DNA from: Acidobacteriota bacterium
GTDB taxonomy: Bacteria; Acidobacteriota; Blastocatellia; UBA7656
DNA length: 64,000 nucleotides
Direction: 5' to 3'
NCBI GenBank assembly: GCA_040754075.1
Contig: JBFMDH010000001.1
Location: forward strand, 166,262 to 230,261
The notes below the pieces were generated by a model, which saw nothing but the letters and a program-made list of their open reading frames with translations, searched no databases and had not been told where the DNA came from. The number at the start of each line of letters is the position of its first letter. Positions within the stretch are counted from its first letter, which is position 1. Positions 37,529-58,950 of this stretch are shown piece by piece. The position numbers were made by a program, and so were the translations under genes.

Positions 37529-37584
37529 ATAGAAAAACGATTTAAAACTGGCACATGCAAAGAAGAAATTGGGAGAGCGGTTTT

Positions 37585-37941
37585 ATGGAGTATTCGGTCA
37601 TCGTTGAAAATCATAATGGCGTTTGGCGGGCGGTGATTCCGGCGCTTTCTGACCTCTCGGCAGAAGGCGCGTCGGAAGCAGAAGCGGTTGACCGAGCCAA
37701 ACAAGCGGCAGAGAAGTTTCTCGCCTCAGTGAAGATCAAAACGATTGCAGTTAATGTATCCAAGGACGCAGAACCAAGACCGGATAGCCCCCAAGCGTGG
37801 CTACGGGATGCCGGAGCATTTGTTGGCGATGAAGCAGCCATGCTGCAACACATAGAAGAAATTTACGCGGAAAGACAAAGACAGCAAAAAGAGGCGGAGT
37901 TAGAAGAGACACTAACGGGAACGGATAAACCGGCAGCATGA
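37585..37941 (+). CDS. HicB-like (UPF0150) antitoxin-type protein
   Basis: MEYSVIVENHNGVWRAVIPALSDLSAEGASEAEAVDRAKQAAEKFL is a typical HicB N-domain pattern. ATG at 37585 preceded by gggagag. 4 nt ATGA overlap with the PIN gene. Confidence 0.65.
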   Translation: MEYSVIVENHNGVWRAVIPALSDLSAEGASEAEAVDRAKQAAEKFLASVKIKTIAVNVSKDAEPRPDSPQAWLRDAGAFVGDEAAMLQHIEEIYAERQRQQKEAELEETLTGTDKPAA

Positions 37942-38360
37942 AAATCTATGTTTTAGACACAGATATTTGCGGTTTTGTGCAAAGTTCTCACTCGAATACG
38001 CTTCAACAACTGATGTCACTTCCCGCAGAGGCTGTAGTGGTTACCACAATTATTACTTTCGGAGAAGACTTGAGCGGTTGGCTTCCCGCTTGTCGCCATG
38101 CCAAAGATGGCATAACCCGCAGCAAAGCTTTTGCGCGATTACAGAACGGTTTGAAATTTTACTTGAAGCGTCGCTGCTTACCTTTCGATGATGCGGCGGT
38201 GGTTATTTTTGACAAACTGAAATCGCTTAAACTACATATTGGAAATAATGATTTGAGCATTGCAGCCATTACCCTGGCGGTCGGTGGCATTCTCGTAACT
38301 CGCAATGCCAAAGATTTCCAACGCATCCCTGATTTACCATTGGAAGATTGGACAGTATGA
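37938..38360 (+). CDS. vapC: PIN-domain toxin (VapC family)
   Basis: 140 aa. MKIYVLDTDI (first acidic residue), internal GNNDLSIAA and VTRNAKDF are typical VapC motifs. Confidence 0.8.
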   Translation: MKIYVLDTDICGFVQSSHSNTLQQLMSLPAEAVVVTTIITFGEDLSGWLPACRHAKDGITRSKAFARLQNGLKFYLKRRCLPFDDAAVVIFDKLKSLKLHIGNNDLSIAAITLAVGGILVTRNAKDFQRIPDLPLEDWTV

Positions 38361-41209: not shown

Positions 41210-41632
41210 ATGAGAAGCATTCTCCAATATTTTGACCGCATTTCAGACATCATAGAATACAGCGAAGCAGAACTTGCTGAAATTGAATTTGAGCAAATCG
41301 ACTCAATTAGCGGAATGATCGATGGGGTCTTGTACTTTCACGACCATTCCCGGTTGGAGTTTACAGAAATCGTTACCATCCAAAAATCGTATGCACATAA
41401 CCGGTTATATCGCTATCAATACATTCAAGCCGAAGAAGCGATTTTTCGATACGACAATGCGCCACATCATCCGGATTTAGTAAACTTTCCGCATCATAAG
41501 CATATAGGTCGAAAAAAGGTTTCATCAACTGAGCCAACTTTGGCGCAAGTTTTAGATGAAATTTCCAAATGGATTAAAGATTCAGCCTTCCCTTTAAAGA
41601 AAGCACGCAAACAGCCACGAACTGGAAAATAA
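41210..41632 (+). CDS. DUF6516-like protein (TumE-type toxin family, tentative)
   Basis: 140 aa. FRYDNAPHHPDLVNFPHHKH motif as I recall it for DUF6516/TumE. Assignment is from memory, not a search. Confidence 0.45.
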   Translation: MRSILQYFDRISDIIEYSEAELAEIEFEQIDSISGMIDGVLYFHDHSRLEFTEIVTIQKSYAHNRLYRYQYIQAEEAIFRYDNAPHHPDLVNFPHHKHIGRKKVSSTEPTLAQVLDEISKWIKDSAFPLKKARKQPRTGK

Positions 41633-44124: not shown

Positions 44125-45075
44125 ATGCAGAATGTTAAGCCGAAATTTTCTGTGAAGTATTGGCGATACGCAATCATCGTTTTATCGGGTTTGAGTTCGC
44201 TGGTGTATGTCTATCCGTTTCGGCAAAACGCCCAGTCAAGCATTGAATACAATCCGGCGGTTCAACTCACTACGCTGGAAAATCGAACCATCAATGAAAG
44301 CAGCGGTATTGCGGCATCACATCGCAACCCGGGAATTCTGTGGACGCATAACGATAGCGGCGATGATGCGTTCGTTTATGCCTTCGATAAAAGCGGAAAA
44401 AATCGCGGGGTTTTCAAAATCACCGATGCCAAAGCGATTGATTGGGAAGACCTCGCCAGTTGGAAAGACCCGAAATCCGGCAAGGCATACCTGTACCTTG
44501 GCGACATCGGCAATAATGCAAAAAAACGCCCGTTTTTAACCATCTATCGCGTCGAAGAACCGAAAATCAGCGAAAGGGATTCAGCTAGCAGCAGACAAAA
44601 TCCCATTCCCACAGCCAAAGCCCAAGCCATCAACCTCAAATACCCGGATGGGAATTTCGACGCCGAAACCTTGATGGTGCATCCGGCGACCGGCGATTTG
44701 TACATCATCACTAAAATAATGGGCGCAGCGGCAAAGGTCTTTAAACTTAAAGCGCCGTTTATGCAGAAAGAAGCGACCCTTGTGCAGGTCGGTGAAGTGC
44801 AGGTTCAAAATCCGATGAAAGGATTTTTTACCGGCGGCGATATTGCGCCTGATGGTCGCCGCGTCGCATTGTGCGATTATCTGAGCGGGTTTGAACTCTC
44901 TTTGCCCGATACAAAAGGCATTGAGTTTGACGAAATCTGGAAACAACCGGTGAAGCTTATTAACCTCGGCGCGCGCAAACAGGGCGAAGCGATTTGTTAT
45001 AGCGCGGATGGCAAATCACTCTTGGCAACCAGTGAAGGCGCGCCTTGCCCGTTGATTGAGATTACGCGCAAATAA
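44125..45075 (+). CDS. hypothetical secreted protein (possible beta-propeller)
   Basis: 316 aa. N-terminal hydrophobic segment YAIIVLSGLSSLVYVY. NESSGIAASHRNPGILWTHNDSGD. No confident family call. Confidence 0.4.
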   Translation: MQNVKPKFSVKYWRYAIIVLSGLSSLVYVYPFRQNAQSSIEYNPAVQLTTLENRTINESSGIAASHRNPGILWTHNDSGDDAFVYAFDKSGKNRGVFKITDAKAIDWEDLASWKDPKSGKAYLYLGDIGNNAKKRPFLTIYRVEEPKISERDSASSRQNPIPTAKAQAINLKYPDGNFDAETLMVHPATGDLYIITKIMGAAAKVFKLKAPFMQKEATLVQVGEVQVQNPMKGFFTGGDIAPDGRRVALCDYLSGFELSLPDTKGIEFDEIWKQPVKLINLGARKQGEAICYSADGKSLLATSEGAPCPLIEITRK

Positions 45076-45610: not shown

Positions 45611-45806
45611 TAGGGAAGCCCATCGCTAATAATTTCCGTTCAAGCAAAACTCCTATTGCGGCAGCAAACCGGTTGATTTCGTTTGACTAACCTCGACCTT
45701 TGTATGTTCGCCTTTTTCGTTGGTAATGACGCGGCAAAACGATTGCGCGTTGAAATCGGATGAAGCAGAATGGTTGTGTCATCTCTTGAGCAATAGAAGG
45801 AAAACC

Positions 45807-46064
45807 ATGACGCACAAAGTTTCTATAGAGCTACCGGATTCGGCGTTCGCGGCGTTGCGGAAATCGCCCGATGAATTTGTCCGTGAAATGCGACTTGCGG
45901 CAGTCGTCAAATGGTATGAACTCGGCGAACTATCGCAAAGCAAAGCCGCCGAAATTGTCGGGTTGAGTCGCGCCGAATTTATCAATGTGTTGTCACGTTT
46001 TCGCGTCTCGCCGTTGCAATACACAGCGGAAGAATTACAAGAGGAATTAGCCGGTGAAGATTGA
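45807..46064 (+). CDS. UPF0175 family antitoxin-like protein
   Basis: 85 aa. LRLAAVVKWYELGELSQSKAAEIVGLSRAEFINVLSRFRVSP is typical of UPF0175. Overlaps the downstream gene by 11 nt. Confidence 0.7.
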   Translation: MTHKVSIELPDSAFAALRKSPDEFVREMRLAAVVKWYELGELSQSKAAEIVGLSRAEFINVLSRFRVSPLQYTAEELQEELAGED

Positions 46065-46542
46065 GAGCGTCGTCATAAATGCCTCGCTCTTGATCGTGCT
46101 GTTCAAAAGCGGAATGGGAGATTTGCTGCCGCAACTTTTCAGGGAAATTTATATTCCCGAAGCCGTATGGCAGGAAATCATCGCAGGCGGCGCACAGGAT
46201 ACTGCCGCGCAAAATTTATCTTCCGCGACCTGGGCGCAGCGCGTTACGGTTTCCGTGACCAACCCAATTATCACAGCTTGGAATTTAGGAGCAGGCGAAT
46301 CAGAAGTCTTGAGTTATGCTCTTGAAAACCCCGGTTATCGCGCAATGGTTGATGACGCGGCAGCGCGCGCTTGCGCGAAAACTTTAAACATACCGACGCT
46401 TGGCACAGGCGGCGCAATCGTGTTGGCGAAAAACCGCAACTTGATTGATTCCGTTACTCAAGCATTAGAGGCTTTGCAAAACTCAGGATTATGGCTATCT
46501 GAAAACATTATTCGATTGCTCAAGCAACAAGCCGACGAATAA
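46054..46542 (+). CDS. DUF3368-type PIN-like nucleic-acid-binding protein
   Basis: 162 aa. Pattern VINASLLI...LGAGESEV...DDAAAR...LNIPTLGTGG. Canonical partner of UPF0175. Confidence 0.65.
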   Translation: MKIESVVINASLLIVLFKSGMGDLLPQLFREIYIPEAVWQEIIAGGAQDTAAQNLSSATWAQRVTVSVTNPIITAWNLGAGESEVLSYALENPGYRAMVDDAAARACAKTLNIPTLGTGGAIVLAKNRNLIDSVTQALEALQNSGLWLSENIIRLLKQQADE

Positions 46543-49091: not shown

Positions 49092-52000
49092 ATGCCGGAA
49101 TATTCCTTTCGTCTGACAATTATTTTTCAGACTTTTGAAAATGACACTGAGCTTGCCGAAGCTCTTTTTTTTCCCGAAATCTCCCGATTTGGCGATAAAG
49201 CGAAAAAATTAGAGAACGCGGTTAAGGAAAATGTCGTGCGCCTTGTCGAAGAAGACGATGCGCTCGCGCTCTATCGTCGTCACTTTACGAGCGAGCCTGA
49301 ACTTGGTGAAGCGCGCGTCACCGTCAATCCGCCACCGAAATCCATCGCCTGGCAAAAGCCGATTGATCTTACTTTTCAAATCCTGCTCTTTACGCATGGC
49401 GAAGACCTGTACATCGCTCACCTTCCACAACTTGGTATCGAAATCATTGGCAGAAACCGGGAAGAACTTGAAGAGAAAATTCCCGCAGAAATTCACGCGC
49501 ATCTCTTACGCATCAAAAAAAATCGCTCACTTGGCGAATTGTTCTGGTTGCAACGCGCCAAAGCGATTCGCCTGGCGCGAACCACTTTTGACGCGACCAT
49601 TCGCACGCCGAAACAGATAGCCAAAAGTCAGTATGCCGCTGACGAAGAGAAAAAATCCGAGCTTGAAAAAGTGGCGACCGATTTAGTCAAAGAGCATTTA
49701 CCGGAGGCTTTTGAGATAGACGAAACCGTCACCCGCATTGCAGACGCGCTTGGCGGTCGCCATCCGCGCAGTGTTTTACTGGTCGGCAAATCGGGCGTCG
49801 GCAAAACCGCTGCGGTGTATGAACTGGTGCGCCGTCGCGCGGCGTTTCGTCTGAGTCGCACACCGTTTTACGCAACCAGCGGCTCGCGACTGGTTGCCGG
49901 CATGTCAGGTTTTGGCATGTGGCAGGAACGTTGCGGCAAAGTCTGGCGCGAGGCTGCAAAACAAAAAGCGATTCTGCATTTCGGCAATCTGCTCGAACTG
50001 ATGGAAGTTGGCAAAAGCACGGCGAACAATCAGGGTATCGCGTCATTCTTTCGCCCCTACATCAGTCGTGGCGATTTGCTCTGCATTGCCGAATGCGCGC
50101 CTGAACAATTGCCCATCATTGAACGCGAAGCGCCAAATCTGCTTGACGCTTTTTTGCAAATTAAAGTTGATGAACCGACAGTTGAACGCGGTTCGGCAAT
50201 TCTGCTGCATTATGCGATTGCGCAAAGCGGGCGCGAGTCGCCGGTTGACCTCGAAGCGATTGAAACGATTGATCGGTTGCATCGCCGCTATGCGACTTAT
50301 TCAGCCTATCCCGGTCGCCCTTTGCGGTTTTTGAAAAATTTATTGCAGGATCGCAAAGGCGGTTCCATCAATGCCGCGATGGTCACTGCGCGTTTTTCCG
50401 AAGAGACCGGTTTGCCGCTATTTTTACTGAACGATGACCTGCCGCTCGATTTAGCGGCGACGCAGAAATTTTTCAGTGAACGGGTCATCGGACAAGCGAG
50501 CGCCGTTGAGTTGGTGGTTAATTTACTGGCGACCGTCAAAGCGCGGCTCACGCGAGCCGGAAAACCGATTGCGTCGTTGATGTTCATCGGGCCCACCGGC
50601 GTTGGCAAAACCGAAATGGCAAAGGCGCTTGCCGAATTCTTATTTCAAAATCGCAATCGCCTGATTCGTTTCGATATGAGCGAATATGCCGATGTGAATT
50701 CCATCGGGCGACTGATTGGCGGCGCGTGGGGAAAAGAAGGCTTGCTTACCGCGAAGGTGCGCGAACAACCGTTTGCGGTGATTCTGCTTGATGAATTTGA
50801 GAAAGCCCATCCGTCATTTTTCGATTTGTTGTTGCAGGTTCTGGGCGAAGGTCGTTTGACCGATGCGATGGGGCGGGTTGCCGATTTTACCAACGCGGTG
50901 GTGATTATGACTTCCAATCTCGGCGCGGAAACTTATAAACGCAATGCGCTGGGGTTTCGTGACGCGACGGATGCCACTGCGCAGGCTCGCGAACATTTTA
51001 TGAAAGCGGTGCAGGCATTTGTGCGTCCCGAATTTTTCAACCGCATCGACCGTATCGTGCCGTTTACACCGCTTGATGAAGCGACCGTATTGAAAATTGC
51101 CCATCGTGAACTGCAACAGATTACGCGACGCGATGGCATTTTCTATCGCGGGGTTGAATTAAATATTACCGAGCAGGTGGCTGAGCGATTGGCGCGAATC
51201 GGCTACGATGCGCGGTATGGGGCGCGACCTCTGAAACGCGCCATCGAACGAGAATTGCTGGTGCCGATTTCCGAAGCGTTGAATTTGCAAACCCTCGATG
51301 TCGGTTTACAGGCGGAGGTGACTGTCGAAGGCGATGAATTGAGTGTAGCGGTGCGCCTTAAAACCGATGAAGCCGGGCGCGTGATTTCCAAATCGTCGAA
51401 GAGCGCGCCGTTTGCCGAACTGGTAAAACAGGCGGCGAAACTCCGCCGCGATGCGCAGAACCTGCGTGGCAGTATCTTTGTTCAGGAGATTCAAAACGAA
51501 ATATTCAACCTTGAACGACTGGCGATGCGGCTTGCGAAAAATAAAACAAAAAATAAATGGCAAGACCCGGCGCAAGCTACAAGCCTTGCGCGGTTGCCCG
51601 ATTTGAAAAATAAATTACAGGCGCTTGAGGTATTCGTCACCCAAACGGCGCAATTTGAAGACGCCGTGTTGTTCTGTTTTTACGGCAAGGAGACCGGCGA
51701 TAAAAACGGTTTGCAGGCGCAACTTGCCGGGATGCAAAAACAGTGGACGGCGCGGTTGTTGGAAATTTACGGATTGCAATTTAAAAAGCCGGATGCGGTG
51801 ACGGTGGCGCTCTATTCGGAAAATGCCAACTGGTTATTTGAACTGGCGCGTGCCTATTTTGAAATCGCGAAACAAATCATGGCGAACGTCGAGGTTGTGG
51901 AATTTGCGGTGCCGTCGCATCAGGAAAGCGAAGCGATAAAGCTTCGCGTCAAAGCCGGTGAAAAAGTTGAGGTTTTTAATTTGCTGGGGCGCGTGACCAT

Positions 52001-52394
52001 TAAACGCCAGGTGAAAAAGCCGGAGGAATTTTTATCCGCGCCGAACGCGCAAACCGTTGGTATCGTGTTGGGCATAGCGGGTGAAATGGTGTTTCCGAGA
52101 TTTGAACCCGAACATGATTTGCACGCCATGACGGTTGCCAAACAAACCCATAACTGTTTGGTACATACCAGTGAAGCGCGCCTCGAAGATTACCTGCCGG
52201 TGAAAGAATTGGATAAACGCGGCAGCATCAAGCATCAGGACGCGCGACGCCTTTATAACCGCGACGACAGCTCGGTTGAAGATTTGTCGCTTGAAGAGAA
52301 ATTTTACTTAGACCGTGATAATTTAGTTGCGGTTGTGCATCAGGCGATTGAACGCCGCTTGCTCAAAAGCGCGCAAGGATTGCTGGATGAATGA
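49092..52394 (+). CDS. atypical ClpA/ClpC-like double-AAA+ ATPase with novel N-domain and C-terminal release-factor-like module (paralogue 1)
   Basis: 1100 aa.
- NBD1: Walker A GKSGVGKT; Walker B position reads AILHFGNLLEL (no acidic pair).
- NBD2: GPTGVGKT, ILLDEFEKAH, TSNLG, GARPLKRAIEREL.
- LGF at aa 620-622, at the ClpA IGL-loop position.
- C-terminal aa ~775-1100 aligns with RF1/RF2 motifs (see findings). Confidence 0.85.
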   Translation: MPEYSFRLTIIFQTFENDTELAEALFFPEISRFGDKAKKLENAVKENVVRLVEEDDALALYRRHFTSEPELGEARVTVNPPPKSIAWQKPIDLTFQILLFTHGEDLYIAHLPQLGIEIIGRNREELEEKIPAEIHAHLLRIKKNRSLGELFWLQRAKAIRLARTTFDATIRTPKQIAKSQYAADEEKKSELEKVATDLVKEHLPEAFEIDETVTRIADALGGRHPRSVLLVGKSGVGKTAAVYELVRRRAAFRLSRTPFYATSGSRLVAGMSGFGMWQERCGKVWREAAKQKAILHFGNLLELMEVGKSTANNQGIASFFRPYISRGDLLCIAECAPEQLPIIEREAPNLLDAFLQIKVDEPTVERGSAILLHYAIAQSGRESPVDLEAIETIDRLHRRYATYSAYPGRPLRFLKNLLQDRKGGSINAAMVTARFSEETGLPLFLLNDDLPLDLAATQKFFSERVIGQASAVELVVNLLATVKARLTRAGKPIASLMFIGPTGVGKTEMAKALAEFLFQNRNRLIRFDMSEYADVNSIGRLIGGAWGKEGLLTAKVREQPFAVILLDEFEKAHPSFFDLLLQVLGEGRLTDAMGRVADFTNAVVIMTSNLGAETYKRNALGFRDATDATAQAREHFMKAVQAFVRPEFFNRIDRIVPFTPLDEATVLKIAHRELQQITRRDGIFYRGVELNITEQVAERLARIGYDARYGARPLKRAIERELLVPISEALNLQTLDVGLQAEVTVEGDELSVAVRLKTDEAGRVISKSSKSAPFAELVKQAAKLRRDAQNLRGSIFVQEIQNEIFNLERLAMRLAKNKTKNKWQDPAQATSLARLPDLKNKLQALEVFVTQTAQFEDAVLFCFYGKETGDKNGLQAQLAGMQKQWTARLLEIYGLQFKKPDAVTVALYSENANWLFELARAYFEIAKQIMANVEVVEFAVPSHQESEAIKLRVKAGEKVEVFNLLGRVTIKRQVKKPEEFLSAPNAQTVGIVLGIAGEMVFPRFEPEHDLHAMTVAKQTHNCLVHTSEARLEDYLPVKELDKRGSIKHQDARRLYNRDDSSVEDLSLEEKFYLDRDNLVAVVHQAIERRLLKSAQGLLDE

Positions 52395-52550: not shown

Positions 52551-55500
52551 GTGAACATAACGCTTCCGATTTACATTCAAAAACCTGCGCCGCAAGACAC
52601 CTTGCCGCCGACGCATATTCTGCGCCCGCTGTTTTTCCCCTATATCGAAGTGCAGGGCGAAGACCTCAATCGCGCCGTCACCAAGCTGGCGCAAAAGATT
52701 CGCCACGAGTGTGACCGACTCGGTAAGGCGATGCGTCACGACCAACTTTCAAAATTTGGTTTCGCGCCTGACCTCGAAGACCGCTTTTTGAAACTCACGC
52801 TCGACCTCGGCAGTCGAAAAGCCGAGTGCAATTTTCTATTTGTCGTCATGCAAACGGTGGGGCGCAAAATTGCTTTTACTCCGGCGCTTGCCGATTTATG
52901 GTTTGAGATTCATCGCGGCGAAACCTTAGTCAACCGCGCCACCGAAGTTCTGTCGCATTACTTTCGCCAGAAACAGAAACGCGAAGGCAACGATGCCCTG
53001 AGACCCGAAGCCTTTTCGGTCAGCGGTAAAGCCTGGGTAACGACGCTCGACATCAGCATCAATCCACCGGCGCGCGCGCCCAAGCTTGTGCAAAATCTCT
53101 TTGCCCTGCTTGGCGAAGCGCCGCAGATGGATGGCGCGGAAGAACTCAATCGCGTCGGGCGATGCCTCGATTATCTTTACCCGGACGATTTGCAGCGGGT
53201 GATTTTTCGGGAGACGGAAACTGAAGCCTTGACCGCGATTTTGAAATCGCAGGACAAACGCCCGGTGCTGTTAATCGGCGAACGCCTGGTCGGAAAGACG
53301 GCGATCATTCACGAATATGTGCATCGCGCTGTGAGCCAACGTCACTCGAAATTCGACGCGAAAAATCAAGTGTGGTTGATTGCGCCGCAACGGTTGATTT
53401 CGGGAATGTCTTACGTCGGGCAGTGGGAAAACCGTCTGCTGGCGATTTTGAAAGTTGCGAAAAAAAAGCAACACATTCTCTACTTCGATGATTTGCTCGG
53501 ACTCTATCAAGCCGGGCAGAGCGCCAGTTCTTCTCTAAGCGTTGCCGATGTTTTAAAACCTTATGTAGAAAAACGCGAAGTGCGCATCCTTGGCGAAATC
53601 ACTCCCGAAGCCTTTCGGGTATTTCAGGAACGCGACCGCGGCTTTGCCGATTCCTTTCATCTGTTGCCGGTCAAAGAACCCGATGAAGATAAAACCTTTC
53701 GCATTCTTCTGCATTTGATGCGCGAGCTTGAGCGCAAACATCGCGCCACTTTTTCTACGGATGTTTTTCCGACAGTGATGGATGTGCAGCGACGCTACAC
53801 ACGCGATGCGGTGTTCCCCGGCAAGGCGGCGATTTTCCTGCAACAACTCGCCGTCAAATATCGCCACGAGCGCGTCACCCGCGATGAAGTATTACAGGAG
53901 TTTCACGCGAAAAGCGGTTTCAGCTTGAATTTTTTGAATGATGAAAACAAACTCACACGGCAAGAGGTAATCGAAGCGGTCGGCAATACGGTCATCGGGC
54001 AGGAGGCGGCGCTTGCTGCCTGTGCGGATGTGGTGTCGATGGCAAAGGCGCGGCTCAATGACCCAGACCGCCCGCTCGCGTCGTTTCTGTTTTTAGGACC
54101 CACAGGGGTTGGCAAAACCCAATGCGCGAAATCGCTTGCGGCATATCTGTACGGCGATGGCGATAAACTTATTCGTTTCGATATGAATGAATATTCGTCG
54201 CCCTATGCGGTGGCAAGACTGGTCGGCACATTCCATCAACCCGAAGGATTGCTCACCAGCGCCGCGCGGCGGCAACCGTTTTCGGTAGTGTTGTTTGATG
54301 AAATCGAAAAGGCGCACCCGGATGTTTTCAATCTTTTATTGCAGGTAATGGGTGACGGGCGGCTTACGGATGCGCTCGGACGAACGGTCGATTTTACCAA
54401 CGCGATGGTCATTTTAACCTCGAACCTCGGCGTCAAAGAGGCTGCGAAAAATCTGGGCTTTCATCGTGACAGAGAACGCGATGGGCAGGTTTATACGCAA
54501 GCCGCCGAGAAATTTTTCAAGCCGGAATTTTTCAATCGCCTCGACCGCATCGTGCCGTTTGCAAGGCTCGGACGCGAAGAGGTGATGCAGATTGCCGAAG
54601 GGTTGATTCAACAGGTTTTTGCGCGTGAAGGATTGGTGCGCCGCAAATGTATTTTACAGGTGGATGAACGGGCAATGGCGCGCATTGTTGAGGAAGGTTA
54701 TCACCCACAACTCGGAGCGCGCGCCCTGAAACGCCTGCTTGAACGCGAGTTGACCCAACCGGTGGCAAGACAACTTGCGACTCTTAAACCCGATGCGCCC
54801 ACGCTCATTAAAGTTTATCCGGCGGCAAGTGAGCTAAAAGTTACGGTCGATTCATTGAAAGGCGCAACGTTGAATGATGAGAGCGCAAGGTTGATTGAAG
54901 GGGTTGCGCCAAAACAGATTGTTGAGCTTGCGGAAGCCGCAGTTGACCGCATTGAATCGCAGGCGGCAAAGATGAGTCCGCAAGGGCTGATCAATCCCGA
55001 TGCCGTGGATGCTACACAACTCGCCTATTTTCAAATTCGCGAACAGGCGCGCCGGGCGCGTGAACTTTGTGAAAAGGTCGCGGCAAAAATCAAACCAACC
55101 GGAAAGCCACTGGTGTCGCGTTCACGCGGTCGCAGCATTGCGGCTTCGCAATTCACTTTGCGTCAGGTAAGCGTCGGAGATTTATGGCAACGATTGATTG
55201 AAGCGGGTGATGTGCGTCAGTTGATGCGCGAACTGCTAACCACTGCCCAACCCTATGGTGAACGCCTCGAAGATTACCTTTCAGAGTTAACGCGCGAGAC
55301 CGCCTTGCTTGAGGTGATTGCGCAAAGCAACGATGAGGTTTCAACCCATCAGGCATTGATGTTGATTCAATCGCTGGACGAAGCCTTTAAAGTCGAGCGT
55401 GAACGGCTGGCAAAAATTTATCACGAACTCTTTACCTATAAACTGGGAAGCCGCGCAGAGTTATTGACCGGCAATCAGGAGGCGGCGGCTTTGCACAGCG

Positions 55501-55877
55501 ATGCCGTGTTGATTCAAGGCGTAAATGTGTTGGCGCTGGCTAAACCCGAAACCGGCGCTCACCTGTTTTACACGGCTAAAGAACAACTCGTGCCGTTGCA
55601 AATTCACGTCTTGCCGGTAATTGACCATTCCGCAGCCGCGACGATTCGCCGGTTTGCTGAAAGTCAGAAGAGGCGATTAAGCGAGCCGGTCGATACCAAC
55701 GAAACCGATTTAAACGAGGCATCGGTTATTCGGGTTTATGAAGAGAACGGCGCGACGCTTGATTTACGCTCAGGACTGATGACGCTCAAGATGCCGACGA
55801 CGAAAGAACTGCGCGCCTTGTTACTTGCGGCTTTGCCATTGCCAATGGAGATGCAATCGGTAGTCGGTAGCCGGTAG
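52551..55877 (+). CDS. atypical ClpA/ClpC-like double-AAA+ ATPase with novel N-domain and C-terminal release-factor-like module (paralogue 2)
   Basis: 1108 aa, GTG start.
- NBD1: GERLVGKT; Walker B ILYFDDLL.
- NBD2: GPTGVGKT, VLFDEIEKAH, TSNLG, GARALKRLLEREL.
- LGF at aa 635-637.
- C-terminal aa ~785-1108 is RF-like (ETGAHLF, IRVYEENGATLDLRSG). Confidence 0.85.
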   Translation: MNITLPIYIQKPAPQDTLPPTHILRPLFFPYIEVQGEDLNRAVTKLAQKIRHECDRLGKAMRHDQLSKFGFAPDLEDRFLKLTLDLGSRKAECNFLFVVMQTVGRKIAFTPALADLWFEIHRGETLVNRATEVLSHYFRQKQKREGNDALRPEAFSVSGKAWVTTLDISINPPARAPKLVQNLFALLGEAPQMDGAEELNRVGRCLDYLYPDDLQRVIFRETETEALTAILKSQDKRPVLLIGERLVGKTAIIHEYVHRAVSQRHSKFDAKNQVWLIAPQRLISGMSYVGQWENRLLAILKVAKKKQHILYFDDLLGLYQAGQSASSSLSVADVLKPYVEKREVRILGEITPEAFRVFQERDRGFADSFHLLPVKEPDEDKTFRILLHLMRELERKHRATFSTDVFPTVMDVQRRYTRDAVFPGKAAIFLQQLAVKYRHERVTRDEVLQEFHAKSGFSLNFLNDENKLTRQEVIEAVGNTVIGQEAALAACADVVSMAKARLNDPDRPLASFLFLGPTGVGKTQCAKSLAAYLYGDGDKLIRFDMNEYSSPYAVARLVGTFHQPEGLLTSAARRQPFSVVLFDEIEKAHPDVFNLLLQVMGDGRLTDALGRTVDFTNAMVILTSNLGVKEAAKNLGFHRDRERDGQVYTQAAEKFFKPEFFNRLDRIVPFARLGREEVMQIAEGLIQQVFAREGLVRRKCILQVDERAMARIVEEGYHPQLGARALKRLLERELTQPVARQLATLKPDAPTLIKVYPAASELKVTVDSLKGATLNDESARLIEGVAPKQIVELAEAAVDRIESQAAKMSPQGLINPDAVDATQLAYFQIREQARRARELCEKVAAKIKPTGKPLVSRSRGRSIAASQFTLRQVSVGDLWQRLIEAGDVRQLMRELLTTAQPYGERLEDYLSELTRETALLEVIAQSNDEVSTHQALMLIQSLDEAFKVERERLAKIYHELFTYKLGSRAELLTGNQEAAALHSDAVLIQGVNVLALAKPETGAHLFYTAKEQLVPLQIHVLPVIDHSAAATIRRFAESQKRRLSEPVDTNETDLNEASVIRVYEENGATLDLRSGLMTLKMPTTKELRALLLAALPLPMEMQSVVGSR

Positions 55878-55885: not shown

Positions 55886-55941
55886 GTGTTTAGTGGTTGA
55901 ATAGAGCGAGGAAGGCTTATGATAAAAAACCGGAGGTAATT

Positions 55942-56553
55942 ATGAGGAACTTCATGTACTGCTTTTTATTTTTATCAAGCCTTTTGACCTTATTGTTGAT
56001 GGTCACGCCGACCGCGAAAGCCTGTACACGCGCCGGCCCGTTTACGTTTAATGAGTTATTCGATAATGCAGAGGTGATTGTGCGGGCTACCGCCGTTAAG
56101 TATGCAAAGGTTCCTGATAATCCGAATATGCGGACAACGGGAGAGCCGGATTCAATTATTCAATTCAAGGTTGAAGAAATACTGAGAGGCAAAAACCTCG
56201 CGAGTACCATCCTGCTCAATGGTTATTTGAGTGATAGTGATGATTACAACGAACAGCCTGTACCTTATACCTTCGTCCGTCCGAATGGTCGCGATGGAAG
56301 TTGCTTTGCGAATACCTATAAACAAGGCGGGCAATTTCTCTTGTTTTTAAAAAAAGTCGACAGTGAATATACGCCCAATATCAGCGCACTTGGCCCAACC
56401 AATGAACAATTGCGAGATGAAAACGACCCCTGGTTGAAATGGGTTAAAGAGCATTTGAAAACCGAAACGAAGCGCAAGCCGCGACTTGCGCTGAACTGGA
56501 AATCACAATTCATAATCGAACACCTCTTCGATAGGGATTGGATATTGGTTTAG
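55942..56553 (+). CDS. hypothetical secreted protein embedded in the AAA+ cluster
   Basis: ATG at 55942 preceded by ggagg. MRNFMYCFLFLSSLLTLLLMVTPTAKAC signal peptide. No recognised domain. Visibly AT-richer than the flanking AAA+ genes (by eye). Confidence 0.55.
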   Translation: MRNFMYCFLFLSSLLTLLLMVTPTAKACTRAGPFTFNELFDNAEVIVRATAVKYAKVPDNPNMRTTGEPDSIIQFKVEEILRGKNLASTILLNGYLSDSDDYNEQPVPYTFVRPNGRDGSCFANTYKQGGQFLLFLKKVDSEYTPNISALGPTNEQLRDENDPWLKWVKEHLKTETKRKPRLALNWKSQFIIEHLFDRDWILV

Positions 56554-56643: not shown

Positions 56644-58950
56644 ATGCCGAGTTTTCGTTTTCCAATTTTAATCTGGGAAGACCACGAAGGATATTTTACC
56701 GCGTGTCCGGTCGAGGGTTTTTATAACACTTTTGCGGGAATAGGTCGCAGTGCCAGTGAAGCGGTTTTTCAATTGAAAGAATTTCTCGCTTATCACTACG
56801 AGAAAAACCCCTGGGCAGCGCCGCCCGATTTTCACGACGCCAAACTCATCGAATTTCGCGCTGATGTGCGCCCGGAATATCGCATTGAAGAAATTGTCGG
56901 CGACCGCAAACAAAAAAATATTTACCCGACCGAAGAAACCCTCGCCTTGCGTTTTGCCTGTGTACACGGCAAACAGCAAGCCGGATTGCTCATCTGTGTG
57001 CTGCCGCTTTTCGGCATACAATTTTATTACTACGATGAAAAGAAACTGAAAGAACTGGCGGTCACCTATGTGCAGGAGAGTTTCAAAGGTCTTGCCCCAC
57101 AACAACTCACAAGATTCTTACCGCCTAAAAATTATCGACTTGATGAAATCGTCATCAATGTTTCACGCAAAGAAACCAGATACGAATACCAACCCTCGCT
57201 TGACACCTTGAACGAAATTGCCGAACCCCTCGGCGACAAACGATTGCGCAGACAATTTTCCGCCGCCTGGGAGCGTGACACGGAAGTTAGAGACCTCGCC
57301 CAGCGCATCGGCAAAGAGAAAGCCAACGTCATCATCGTCGGCGACAGCGGCATCGGTAAAACCACTTTGCTGGTGAACGCGGTGCGTGAAGTTGAACAGC
57401 ATATGATTGCGGGCGATGACGAAGAAAACGCCGGGCGCAAAGCCAGACACCGATTTTATTTGACCAGCGGCGCGCGCATCATCGCAGGGATGCGCTATCT
57501 CGGTCAGTGGGAAGAGCGGGTTGAATCGCTCATTGATGAGCTTGCGGAAATCAATGGCGTGTTATGCGTCGGCAGCATTTTGGACTTAATCCTTGCAGGC
57601 GGTGAAGTGAGCGCCAGCATCGCGGCATTTTTACAGCCCTTTCTGCAACGCGGCGAATTGCAACTCGTAGGCGAAGCGACGCCCACCGAACTCGATGCCT
57701 GCCGAAGATTATTGCCGGGATTTGCCAGCCTGTTTCAAATTCTCAATCTGCAACCGTTCAATCGCGCCCAGGCGATTGCGATTTTGCAACGCGCTTCGGA
57801 AACTTATCAGCGCAATTATCGCATTGAGGCGGCAAGCATCCTGCCGGAACTCGTCTATCGTTTGTTCAATCGCTTCTCGCCTTATCAGGCATTCCCCGGA
57901 AAAGCCATTGCCTTTCTGCATTCGGCATTTGAACGCGCCGAACTTGAACATAAAACGGCAATCACCGGCGAAGACCTGATTCAAAAGTTTGTGCGGCAGA
58001 CCGGACTCCCCGAACTTTTTTTACGCGATGAATTGCCGCTCAACCAGTATGACATCGTTGAATTTTTTGAACAGCAGGTCATCGGGCAACGCGCCGCCTG
58101 TGAAGTTGCGGCAAATCTGGTGACTACATTCAAAGCCGGGTTGAACGACCCGCAACGCCCGATTGGGGTGTTGCTGTTTTGCGGGCCGACCGGGGTTGGC
58201 AAAACCCAACTCGCAAAAGCGATTTCGGAATACCTGTTCGGACAAGGCGAAGAACGCAACCGCTTAATCCGGCTCGATATGAGCGAATATGGCGATTTCG
58301 GCGCGGCAGAACGTTTGATTACCAAGCCCAATGGCGAGCCGAGCGATTTGATTCAGCGGGTACGCCAGCAACCATTCGTTGTGGTGTTGTTCGATGAAAT
58401 CGAAAAAGCCGACGTAGCGGTTTTCGATGCGTTGCTCAGTGTTTTCGATGAAGGGCGCATCACCGACCGTTACGGGCGAACCACTTCATTTCGCAGCGCC
58501 ATCATTATCGCGACGTCGAACATCGGCGCAGATAAAACCGCGAGCATCGGATTCGATGGTCACAATGTGCGCGGTTTTGCCGCGGAGGTGATGACTTTCT
58601 TTCGCCCGGAATTTTTTAATCGCCTGGATGCGGTTGTCGGTTTTCGCGCGCTCGACGAAGAAGCGATTCTCAACGTAACGCGCAAAGAATTAGCTGAGAT
58701 TGCCAAACGCGAAGGGATAAACGCCTCGAATACCAGATTAATTTGGACAGAACGATTAATTGAATATATGGCGAAAGCCGGTTATGACGCGCGATATGGC
58801 GCGCGCCCTTTGCAACGCACCATTGAACAGATGATCGTTGCGCCGCTTTCGCGATTCCTGCTTGAACACCTGATGAGCAAAGGCAAAACCATTCAAGCCG
58901 ATTTCCTCAATGGCGAAATCCGTTTTTCAACTACGGAACATACGGAATAG
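56644..58950 (+). CDS. atypical ClpA/ClpC-like double-AAA+ ATPase with novel N-domain, no C-terminal extension (paralogue 3)
   Basis: 768 aa.
- NBD1: GDSGIGKT; Walker B position reads GVLCVGSILDL.
- NBD2: GPTGVGKT, VLFDEIEKAD, TSNIG, GARPLQRTIEQ.
- IGF at aa 635-637. Confidence 0.85.
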   Translation: MPSFRFPILIWEDHEGYFTACPVEGFYNTFAGIGRSASEAVFQLKEFLAYHYEKNPWAAPPDFHDAKLIEFRADVRPEYRIEEIVGDRKQKNIYPTEETLALRFACVHGKQQAGLLICVLPLFGIQFYYYDEKKLKELAVTYVQESFKGLAPQQLTRFLPPKNYRLDEIVINVSRKETRYEYQPSLDTLNEIAEPLGDKRLRRQFSAAWERDTEVRDLAQRIGKEKANVIIVGDSGIGKTTLLVNAVREVEQHMIAGDDEENAGRKARHRFYLTSGARIIAGMRYLGQWEERVESLIDELAEINGVLCVGSILDLILAGGEVSASIAAFLQPFLQRGELQLVGEATPTELDACRRLLPGFASLFQILNLQPFNRAQAIAILQRASETYQRNYRIEAASILPELVYRLFNRFSPYQAFPGKAIAFLHSAFERAELEHKTAITGEDLIQKFVRQTGLPELFLRDELPLNQYDIVEFFEQQVIGQRAACEVAANLVTTFKAGLNDPQRPIGVLLFCGPTGVGKTQLAKAISEYLFGQGEERNRLIRLDMSEYGDFGAAERLITKPNGEPSDLIQRVRQQPFVVVLFDEIEKADVAVFDALLSVFDEGRITDRYGRTTSFRSAIIIATSNIGADKTASIGFDGHNVRGFAAEVMTFFRPEFFNRLDAVVGFRALDEEAILNVTRKELAEIAKREGINASNTRLIWTERLIEYMAKAGYDARYGARPLQRTIEQMIVAPLSRFLLEHLMSKGKTIQADFLNGEIRFSTTEHTE

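Follow-up and report, generated by a model that had tools for sequence, protein, structure and literature searches.

Organization of the locus

The analyzed window is a 64,000-nucleotide (nt) stretch of contig JBFMDH010000001.1 (positions 166,262 to 230,261 of the forward strand) of an Acidobacteriota bacterium of the class Blastocatellia, and positions given below are counted from its first letter. The stretch carries a cluster of three paralogous AAA+ ATPase genes, all read from the plus strand. The first of them, paralogue 1 (W1; 49092..52394), is a genuine open reading frame (ORF) of 1100 amino acids (aa). It encodes a ClpA-like two-ring AAA+ protein with a diverged homologue of the bacterial class I release factors (RFs) at its C-terminus.

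From the N- to the C-terminus, W1 consists of a novel N-terminal domain, a degenerate first AAA+ module (D1), an active second module (D2), a D2-small domain, a flexible linker and the RF-like tail. The N-terminal domain (49092..49706, ~205 aa) is not Clp_N and is common to all three paralogues. The core motifs of D1 (49785..50000) were located by alignment with ClpA and ClpB of Escherichia coli, and those of D2 (50589..50963) by alignment with the same proteins and from the residue composition of the family. Pfam recognizes AAA_2 (aa 491-654, E = 7e-45) and ClpB_D2-small (aa 661-735, E = 2e-14). The NCBIfam ClpB and ClpA models also match W1, but far below their equivalog cut-offs. The linker between D2-small and the RF-like module occupies 51327..51404 (aa ~746-771), and the first 20 residues of the structural model described below have predicted local distance difference test scores (pLDDT) of 61-69.

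The segment initially described as RF-like, nt 51414-52394, corresponds to aa 775-1100; the AlphaFold2 model places the start of the module slightly earlier, at about aa 772. Domain 1 is a helical bundle (51405..51773, aa ~772-894; model helices H23-43, H46-71, H77-114 and H122-145). Domain 2 (51786..52178, aa ~899-1029) includes Y922, an insertion at aa 941-988, the strand with the E-x-G-x-H motif and the segment CLVHTS. It is followed by a 22-aa linker in the place of RF domain 3 (RLEDYLPVKELDKRGSIKHQDA; 52179..52244), delimited from the family consensus and the spacing between a conserved His and a conserved Arg. Domain 4 (52245..52391, aa 1052-1100), with its R-R-x-Y-[DN]...D motif, completes the protein.

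The tail of W1 is homologous to class I release factors

Relatives of W1 were sought among both proteins and genomes. A word-indexed protein search returned only two or three relatives per query (two for the W1 tail). When 1.84 billion representative proteins were scanned exhaustively with HMMER and a three-sequence profile, 473 clusters were retrieved at E ≤ 1e-3, including 347 at E ≤ 1e-10. Full-length members are ~1040-1170 aa long, carry the tail at ~aa 770-1100 and share the architecture of W1. Where members of the family are named in public records, they are called only “AAA family ATPase” or “ClpA”. Among genomes, a scan with tail patterns found no loci, and a scan with D1-specific patterns yielded 149 relatives. 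The locus counts given below are based on 80 of these (L010-L089) and the window itself, i.e. 81 sources. The 80 loci belong to Blastocatellia and Pyrinomonadaceae (Acidobacteriota), many Planctomycetota, and some Verrucomicrobiota and Lentisphaerae. The W1-type tail had no match among 72,556 plasmids or 50,697 phage records.

The similarity between the tail and RFs is detectable solely by family profiles and structure comparison. Neither full-length W1 nor its residues 775-1100 gave a PCRF or RF-1 match in Pfam at E ≤ 1, and none of the 53 family tails matched PCRF (PF03462) or RF-1 (PF00472) in this database even at E ≤ 10; the Pfam comparison proposed in the initial annotation was thus negative. 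The lone W1 tail had zero matches among PDB sequences.

A profile built from 53 tails of the W1 family gave a different picture. When it was run with hmmsearch against 177,635 distinct PDB sequences, the ten best matches were all RF2 or RF1 (E = 3.3e-6 to 1e-3). The alignment consists of three collinear pieces: profile positions 34-193 match residues 2-162 of RF2 (domain 1 and the start of domain 2), positions 226-266 match residues 158-199 of RF1 (the core of domain 2), and positions 274-330 match residues 304-367 of RF1 (domain 4). Comparison by hhalign of a 98-sequence tail profile with RF1 and RF2, both taken from the E. coli genome, gave a probability of 92% (P = 5.7e-7), with tail positions 26-339 aligned collinearly to residues 4-365 of RF2 and domain 3 skipped. 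The four motif alignments by which the likeness had first been recognized coincide with these computed alignments.

An AlphaFold2 model of the tail based on the 53-sequence alignment reached a pLDDT of 94.8 and a predicted template modelling score of 0.89. In a Foldseek search of the PDB with this model, class I RFs (RF1, RF2, mtRF1 and mtRF1a) filled places 1 to 43, with E values down to 3e-9 and a probability of 1.0. TM-scores were highest (0.43-0.46) for compact or pre-accommodated RF2. Sequence identity between the tail and RFs is just 10-19%. When only three sequences were aligned, AlphaFold2 produced an unusable model (pLDDT 50), and the sole PDB match of the three-sequence profile, a lipocalin, was rejected as a chance match.

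The assignment of aa ~775-1100 to RF domains 1, 2 and 4 made in the initial annotation is thus borne out by both profile and fold. The helical “GTPase-interacting” bundle (domain 1) and the “codon-recognition” superdomain (domains 2 and 4) are both retained. The tail is an RF-derived module that consists of domains 1, 2 and 4, lacks the hydrolase domain and is fused to a ClpA-like ATPase.

Absence of domain 3 and conservation of tail residues

In W1 the His of the E-x-G-x-H motif (H1011) and the Arg of R-x-Y (R1053) are 43 aa apart. This spacing is 40-49 aa across the family, apart from a single representative outlier with 109 aa, versus 127 aa in RF1 and 126 aa in RF2 of E. coli. Approximately 83 residues, the hydrolase domain, are therefore absent from the W1 tail. 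This confirms that domain 3 is missing, as the initial annotation had stated, and makes the loss somewhat smaller than the ~110 residues given there. The absence of a GGQ tripeptide was also correctly reported: none occurs anywhere in W1, nor in either of the other two paralogues of the window.

In place of domain 3 stands a conserved Arg-rich linker, 22 aa long in W1 and 22-24 aa in the family, with the consensus Y-x-P-P-x-G-[IVL]-E-R-R-G-x-I-(5)-R-R. This linker is among the best-conserved stretches of the tail, whose pairwise identity is otherwise ~26%. A tetrapeptide IGGQ appears within it in a few relatives (P0014, P0070 and P0144; L022, L023 and L046). The linker as a remnant of the GGQ loop was ruled out, since IGGQ is present in no more than 6, and the Gln in no more than 41, of 98 relatives; in those six the tetrapeptide is probably a coincidence.

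Several residues of the domain 2/4 superdomain are nearly invariant in the tail family and are also conserved in RFs. E1007 is kept in all 98 tails, H1011 in 97, R1053 in 98, Y1055 in 81 and D1064 in 89. The others are G1009, E910 and Y922, which is the Y of the RF “RMY” motif. The E1007-x-G1009-x-H1011 motif (aa 1007-1011) corresponds to “E.G.HR” of RFs (W1 itself reads E-H-D-L-H, with D at position 1009), and R1053-x-Y1055-[DN] together with D1064 corresponds to “RTYNF..RVTDHR”. In domain 1, the sites conserved in the family are LRR..Q (R785 and R786) and N802. The insertion in domain 2, at aa 941-988 in W1, is lineage-specific, with a length of 30 to 110 aa in different family members.

A second release factor-like tail and conservation of the gene cluster

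Paralogue 2 (W2; 52551..55877, 1108 aa) has the same N-domain/D1/D2 plan as W1, with 37% identity over the motor core, and a tail of its own (nt 54816-55874, 350 aa) that is more diverged than that of W1. By eye, RF-like motifs could be distinguished in it, GVNVLALAKPETGAHLF and IRVYEENGATLDLRSG versus IRSYVLDDSRIKDLRTG of RF2. Used as a single sequence or as a four-sequence profile, the W2 tail gave no significant match. With a profile of 36 W2-type tails collected from genomes, the eight best PDB matches were all RF2 (E ~1e-4), profile positions 79-253 being aligned with residues 5-189. The two tail types also match each other in hhalign (P = 6e-6 and P = 8e-5). The W2-type tail likewise lacks domain 3, and its linker at this place is longer (30-63 aa). 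A second, separately diverged RF-derived tail is thus present on the neighbouring paralogue.

Paralogue 3 (W3; 56644..58950, 768 aa), delimited with Pfam, follows the same N-domain/D1/D2 plan and has no tail. W2 and W3 are separated by an ORF of 218 aa (55897..56553) with a signal-peptide-like N-terminus, which is absent from the 80 related loci and matches no family. It is an insertion and probably not a part of the system.

The three ATPase genes form a conserved cluster headed by W1. The order tail type 1, tail type 2, tail-less is conserved in most of the 80 loci, in Acidobacteriota, Planctomycetota and Verrucomicrobiota. Tail type 1 was found in 77 of the 81 sources, the N-domain of paralogue 2 in 58 and that of paralogue 3 in at least 44, and many loci without paralogue 2 or 3 are truncated contigs. 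Gene 1 stands alone in about eleven loci with enough downstream DNA. The initial annotation, accurate as regards the tail of W1, had missed both the RF-like tail of W2 and the conservation of the three-gene cluster.

Motor modules and N-terminal domains

Alignment with E. coli ClpA and ClpB showed that W1 follows the ClpA plan, without the M-domain of ClpB. The D1 Walker A motif is intact in all three paralogues (GKSGVGKT in W1, aa 232-239), and the D1 pore-loop region of W1 reads AGMSGFGMWQER (aa 269-280). The D1 Walker B motif (49971-50000 in W1, 53475-53504 in W2 and 57559-57588 in W3) has degenerated in a paralogue-specific and conserved manner. W1 reads ILHFGNLLEL (aa 294-303), with G-N where D-E is expected; in its family the G is kept in 71 of 73 members and the N in 54. 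Members of the paralogue 2 family have D-D in 47 of 48 cases (W2 reads F-D-D), and the paralogue 3 family has E-N, replaced by G-S in W3.

Both Walker motifs of D2 are canonical in all three proteins; in W1 they read GPTGVGKT (A, aa 500-507) and ILLDEFEKAHP (B, aa 564-574). Taken with the D1 pattern, this suggests a division of labour within a mixed ring. The D2 pore loop is 5 aa shorter in all three paralogues than the GYVG loop of ClpA and ClpB. In W1 it reads GGAWGKEG (aa 543-550, nt 50718-50741), without the canonical GYVG. At the position of the ClpP-docking tripeptide IGL of ClpA, W1 and W2 have LGF (in W1 within aa 619-624, nt 50946-50963) and W3 has IGF; G-F is found at this position in more than 80% of each paralogue family.

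The N-domains of the three proteins (49092-49706, 52551-53207 and 56644-57273) represent one shared domain of ~205 aa that stands in place of Clp_N. By hhalign, the N-domain of W1 matches that of W3 with a probability of 94% and that of W2 with 81%. Residues 1-200 of W1 match neither Clp_N nor any other Pfam family, and a 39-sequence N-domain profile had no match in Pfam or among PDB sequences. A motif “A.vPaLGIEV” within this domain looks HicB-like, by eye only. Pairwise identity is 57-61% in the motor and 25-39% in the N-domains and tails (25-27% in the tails).

Genomic surroundings

The window is syntenic with a Blastocatellia metagenome-assembled genome (MAG092) from an aldo-keto reductase gene to aroA and HIT, with 74-97% aa identity, and it is therefore a chromosomal stretch. 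In Blastocatellia the cluster lies between housekeeping genes, with the aldo-keto reductase gene upstream and aroA downstream. None of the genes flanking the cluster is shared by more than 10 of the 81 loci. In one Pirellulaceae metagenome-assembled genome, a genuine prfA gene (RF1; L036, 7236-8336, minus strand) is located immediately upstream of the cluster; as this was seen in only one of the 81 loci, the proximity is probably a coincidence.

Toxin-antitoxin-type genes are present upstream of the cluster at 37555-38360, 41210-41632 and 45720-46542, scattered among purine biosynthesis genes (purB-like, purQ and purL). They comprise a gene for a VapC-like PIN toxin, preceded by a small ORF, a gene for a TumE toxin and a UPF0175-DUF3368 pair. 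An ORF of 316 aa (44125-45075), located between purL and a GNAT acetyltransferase gene, had no Pfam or NCBIfam match. No Rfam family was found in the window, where promoter and terminator scans remained at background level, and PADLOC returned only partial, generic AAA-domain matches, to DolB and PDC-M37B.

Comparison with known systems

The tail shares with RF1 and RF2 (PrfA and PrfB) the bundle of domain 1 and the beta-sheet superdomain of domains 2 and 4, in the same order, as well as the Y of “RMY”, E-x-G-x-H, R-x-Y-N and the D of “TDHR”. It differs from them in the missing GGQ domain 3, the basic domain 1, the domain 2 insertion and the lack of conservation of the alpha-5 tip, the PxT/SPF loop and the His of “HTS”. 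Furthermore, RFs are stand-alone proteins, whereas the tail is fused C-terminally to a 750-aa AAA+ protein and falls below Pfam thresholds.

The bacterial RF hydrolase domain is an insert within the codon-recognition domain (Burroughs and Aravind, PMC6514570), so the W1 tail amounts to an RF scaffold without this insert. According to the same 2019 survey of the RF family, the insert is kept in every RF relative covered, and none of these is fused to an AAA+ motor (PMC6514570). We found no description of an AAA+-RF fusion in full-text searches of the literature.

The motor resembles ClpA and ClpC in its two AAA+ modules followed by D2-small, in the lack of an M-domain and in the intact Walker A and B motifs of D2, and an x-G-F tripeptide, a candidate docking loop, stands at the position of their ClpP-docking loop (IGL in ClpA, VGF in ClpC). 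The differences are the novel N-domain in place of Clp_N, a D1 Walker B motif reading G-N, D-D or E-N, the shorter D2 pore loop without GYVG, a C-terminal RF-like extension of 330-350 aa, and the presence of three paralogues in one operon, which suggests a mixed ring.

Catalytically inactive Dom34/Pelota acts together with ABCE1, and Vms1 with Cdc48, in archaeal and eukaryotic ribosome rescue. If the function proposed below is correct, these systems would be analogous to the one described here, as an RF-derived A-site module would in each case be coupled to an ATPase by which stalled ribosomes are split or remodelled. They are not homologous: they combine the aeRF1 fold with ABC or Cdc48 ATPases as separate polypeptides, whereas here a scaffold of the bacterial RF type is covalently fused to a Clp-type motor.

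PrfH (RF-H) and ArfB/ICT1 are likewise RF-derived proteins that have lost a part of the RF architecture, and they act on problem ribosomes. PrfH lacks domain 1 and keeps domain 3 with its GGQ motif, and ArfB is domain 3 alone. The W1 tail, with domains 1, 2 and 4 and without domain 3, is the complementary fragment.

Proposed function and alternative explanations

The complementary degeneration of D1 and the fixed gene order suggest that W1, W2 and W3 assemble into a single, probably mixed, hexameric motor driven by D2. Its RF-like tails, carried on flexible linkers, would act as probes of the A site and decoding centre, docking where RF1 and RF2 bind. Tails devoid of GGQ and of stop codon-reading residues could neither release a peptide nor need a stop codon. 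They may therefore mark ribosomes whose A site is accessible (stalled, non-stop, idle or hibernating). Marked ribosomes would undergo ATP-driven remodelling, in which a nascent chain or a protein bound to the ribosome could be extracted or unfolded, or the subunits could be dissociated. The conserved x-G-F at the ClpP-docking position of ClpA suggests a possible hand-over of substrates to ClpP.

Targeting of W1 to the ribosomal A site by its tail is a plausible inference. In established structures of RF-ribosome complexes, RF domain 1 has its N-terminus exposed to solvent near the base of the stalk; together with the flexible tether preceding the tail, this makes an N-terminal fusion geometrically possible. 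The proposal is consistent with the retention of the RF scaffold without domain 3 in two paralogues, with a gene order kept across phyla and with the fact that the residues kept by the tail are those that RFs conserve. That the tails dock at the A site and bring a D2-driven, perhaps ClpP-coupled, remodeller to ribosomes has, in our judgement, about an even chance of being correct. More tentative, and only a possibility, is the view of the complex as a new bacterial ribosome-surveillance machine, in which a heteromeric Clp-type unfoldase, possibly feeding ClpP, is hard-wired to catalytically inactive RF probes that would sense the A-site state independently of a stop codon. If the tails do bind ribosomes, such a machine, a fused counterpart of Dom34-ABCE1 and Vms1-Cdc48, might extract or degrade nascent chains or bound factors, or dismantle stalled or hibernating ribosomes.

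A number of observations weigh against A-site docking and ribosome remodelling. The Gly-rich alpha-5 tip (G-x-x-E) of RFs is deleted from the tails, and its Glu survives in 74 of 98. The PxT/SPF loop, between H1011 and C1022, is variable across the family, with F1013 as its only conserved position, in line with the initial remark that the stop codon-recognition tripeptide is not conserved. The His of “HTS” (H1025), present in W1, is not conserved in the family. Domain 1 is mildly basic in the family (mean charge +3) and strongly acidic in RF1 (-12) and RF2 (-19), and its RF-type contacts may therefore be lost. The domain 2 insertion could clash inside the A site, and the conserved residues of the tail may belong to the core of the fold rather than contact ribosomal RNA. 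As regards the motor, the lack of a canonical GYVG in the D2 pore loop makes classical threading uncertain, only ~55-65% of members have a hydrophobic residue at the first position of the x-G-F loop, and no clpP gene was found near the cluster in the examined loci. Finally, no translation-related gene is a conserved neighbour of the cluster across the 81 loci.

Alternatively, the RF-derived fold may have been exapted for a non-ribosomal task, such as the binding of substrates or adaptors or assembly, within an otherwise ordinary Clp-type unfoldase or protease, in which case RF ancestry would be history only. The loss of every known decoding residue from the tail, the reversed charge of domain 1 and a neighbourhood devoid of translation genes are in agreement with this explanation, as are family-specific sites without an RF counterpart (R785, R786, N802 and the Y-PP-G-RRG linker). 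The rate of evolution of the tails is also roughly double that of the motor, a behaviour typical of the peripheral specificity domains of Clp ATPases. However, the full three-domain RF scaffold, without domain 3, has been kept in two paralogues and in several phyla, the RF-conserved residues of the domain 2/4 superdomain remain nearly invariant, and the gene context points to no alternative partner. We consider exaptation rather unlikely.

A role in conflict or defence is less probable still. Here the tails would serve as decoys or sensors when phages or toxins attack translation, with the ATPases shutting down or rescuing ribosomes during infection. The patchy phyletic distribution, with ~65% identity between acidobacterial and planctomycetal copies, suggests horizontal transfer; flanking genes differ between genomes, several toxin-antitoxin genes lie upstream in the window, and the sensor-like terminal domains evolve fast. 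A conflict origin has also been argued for several RF paralogues (Burroughs and Aravind, PMC6514570). Against such a role, PADLOC matched only generic AAA domains, the tail is unmatched in the plasmid and phage records, the Blastocatellia cluster sits in conserved synteny between housekeeping genes, and the proteins contain no effector (nuclease, protease or pore-forming) domain.

A reading of a different kind, in which the codon-recognition domain of RFs survives in the tail in its state prior to insertion of the hydrolase domain, appears very improbable. Chance or convergent resemblance of an unrelated alpha/beta domain to RFs, which the failure of single sequences in Pfam and the low identity might suggest, can practically be dismissed. 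In searches of the whole PDB, three independent methods rank RFs, and nothing else, first; domains 1, 2 and 4 align collinearly; the tail family and RFs have their conserved motifs in common; and a second tail family matches RF2 independently.

Biological significance

Ribosome rescue and quality control in bacteria are thought to rest on transfer-messenger RNA, ArfA, ArfB, PrfH, RqcH, HflX and similar factors. The architecture described here is previously unannotated: a Clp/Hsp100 unfoldase carries a new accessory domain, which is at the same time a new truncated paralogue of RFs and whose homology to them escapes routine annotation. Its carriers, Acidobacteriota and members of the Planctomycetota-Verrucomicrobiota group, are abundant yet poorly studied. 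If the tails bind ribosomes, they would represent a new way of bringing an unfoldase or protease to the translation machinery of these bacteria. If they do not, the family would still show clearly how a core translation factor can be dismantled and reused as an accessory domain.

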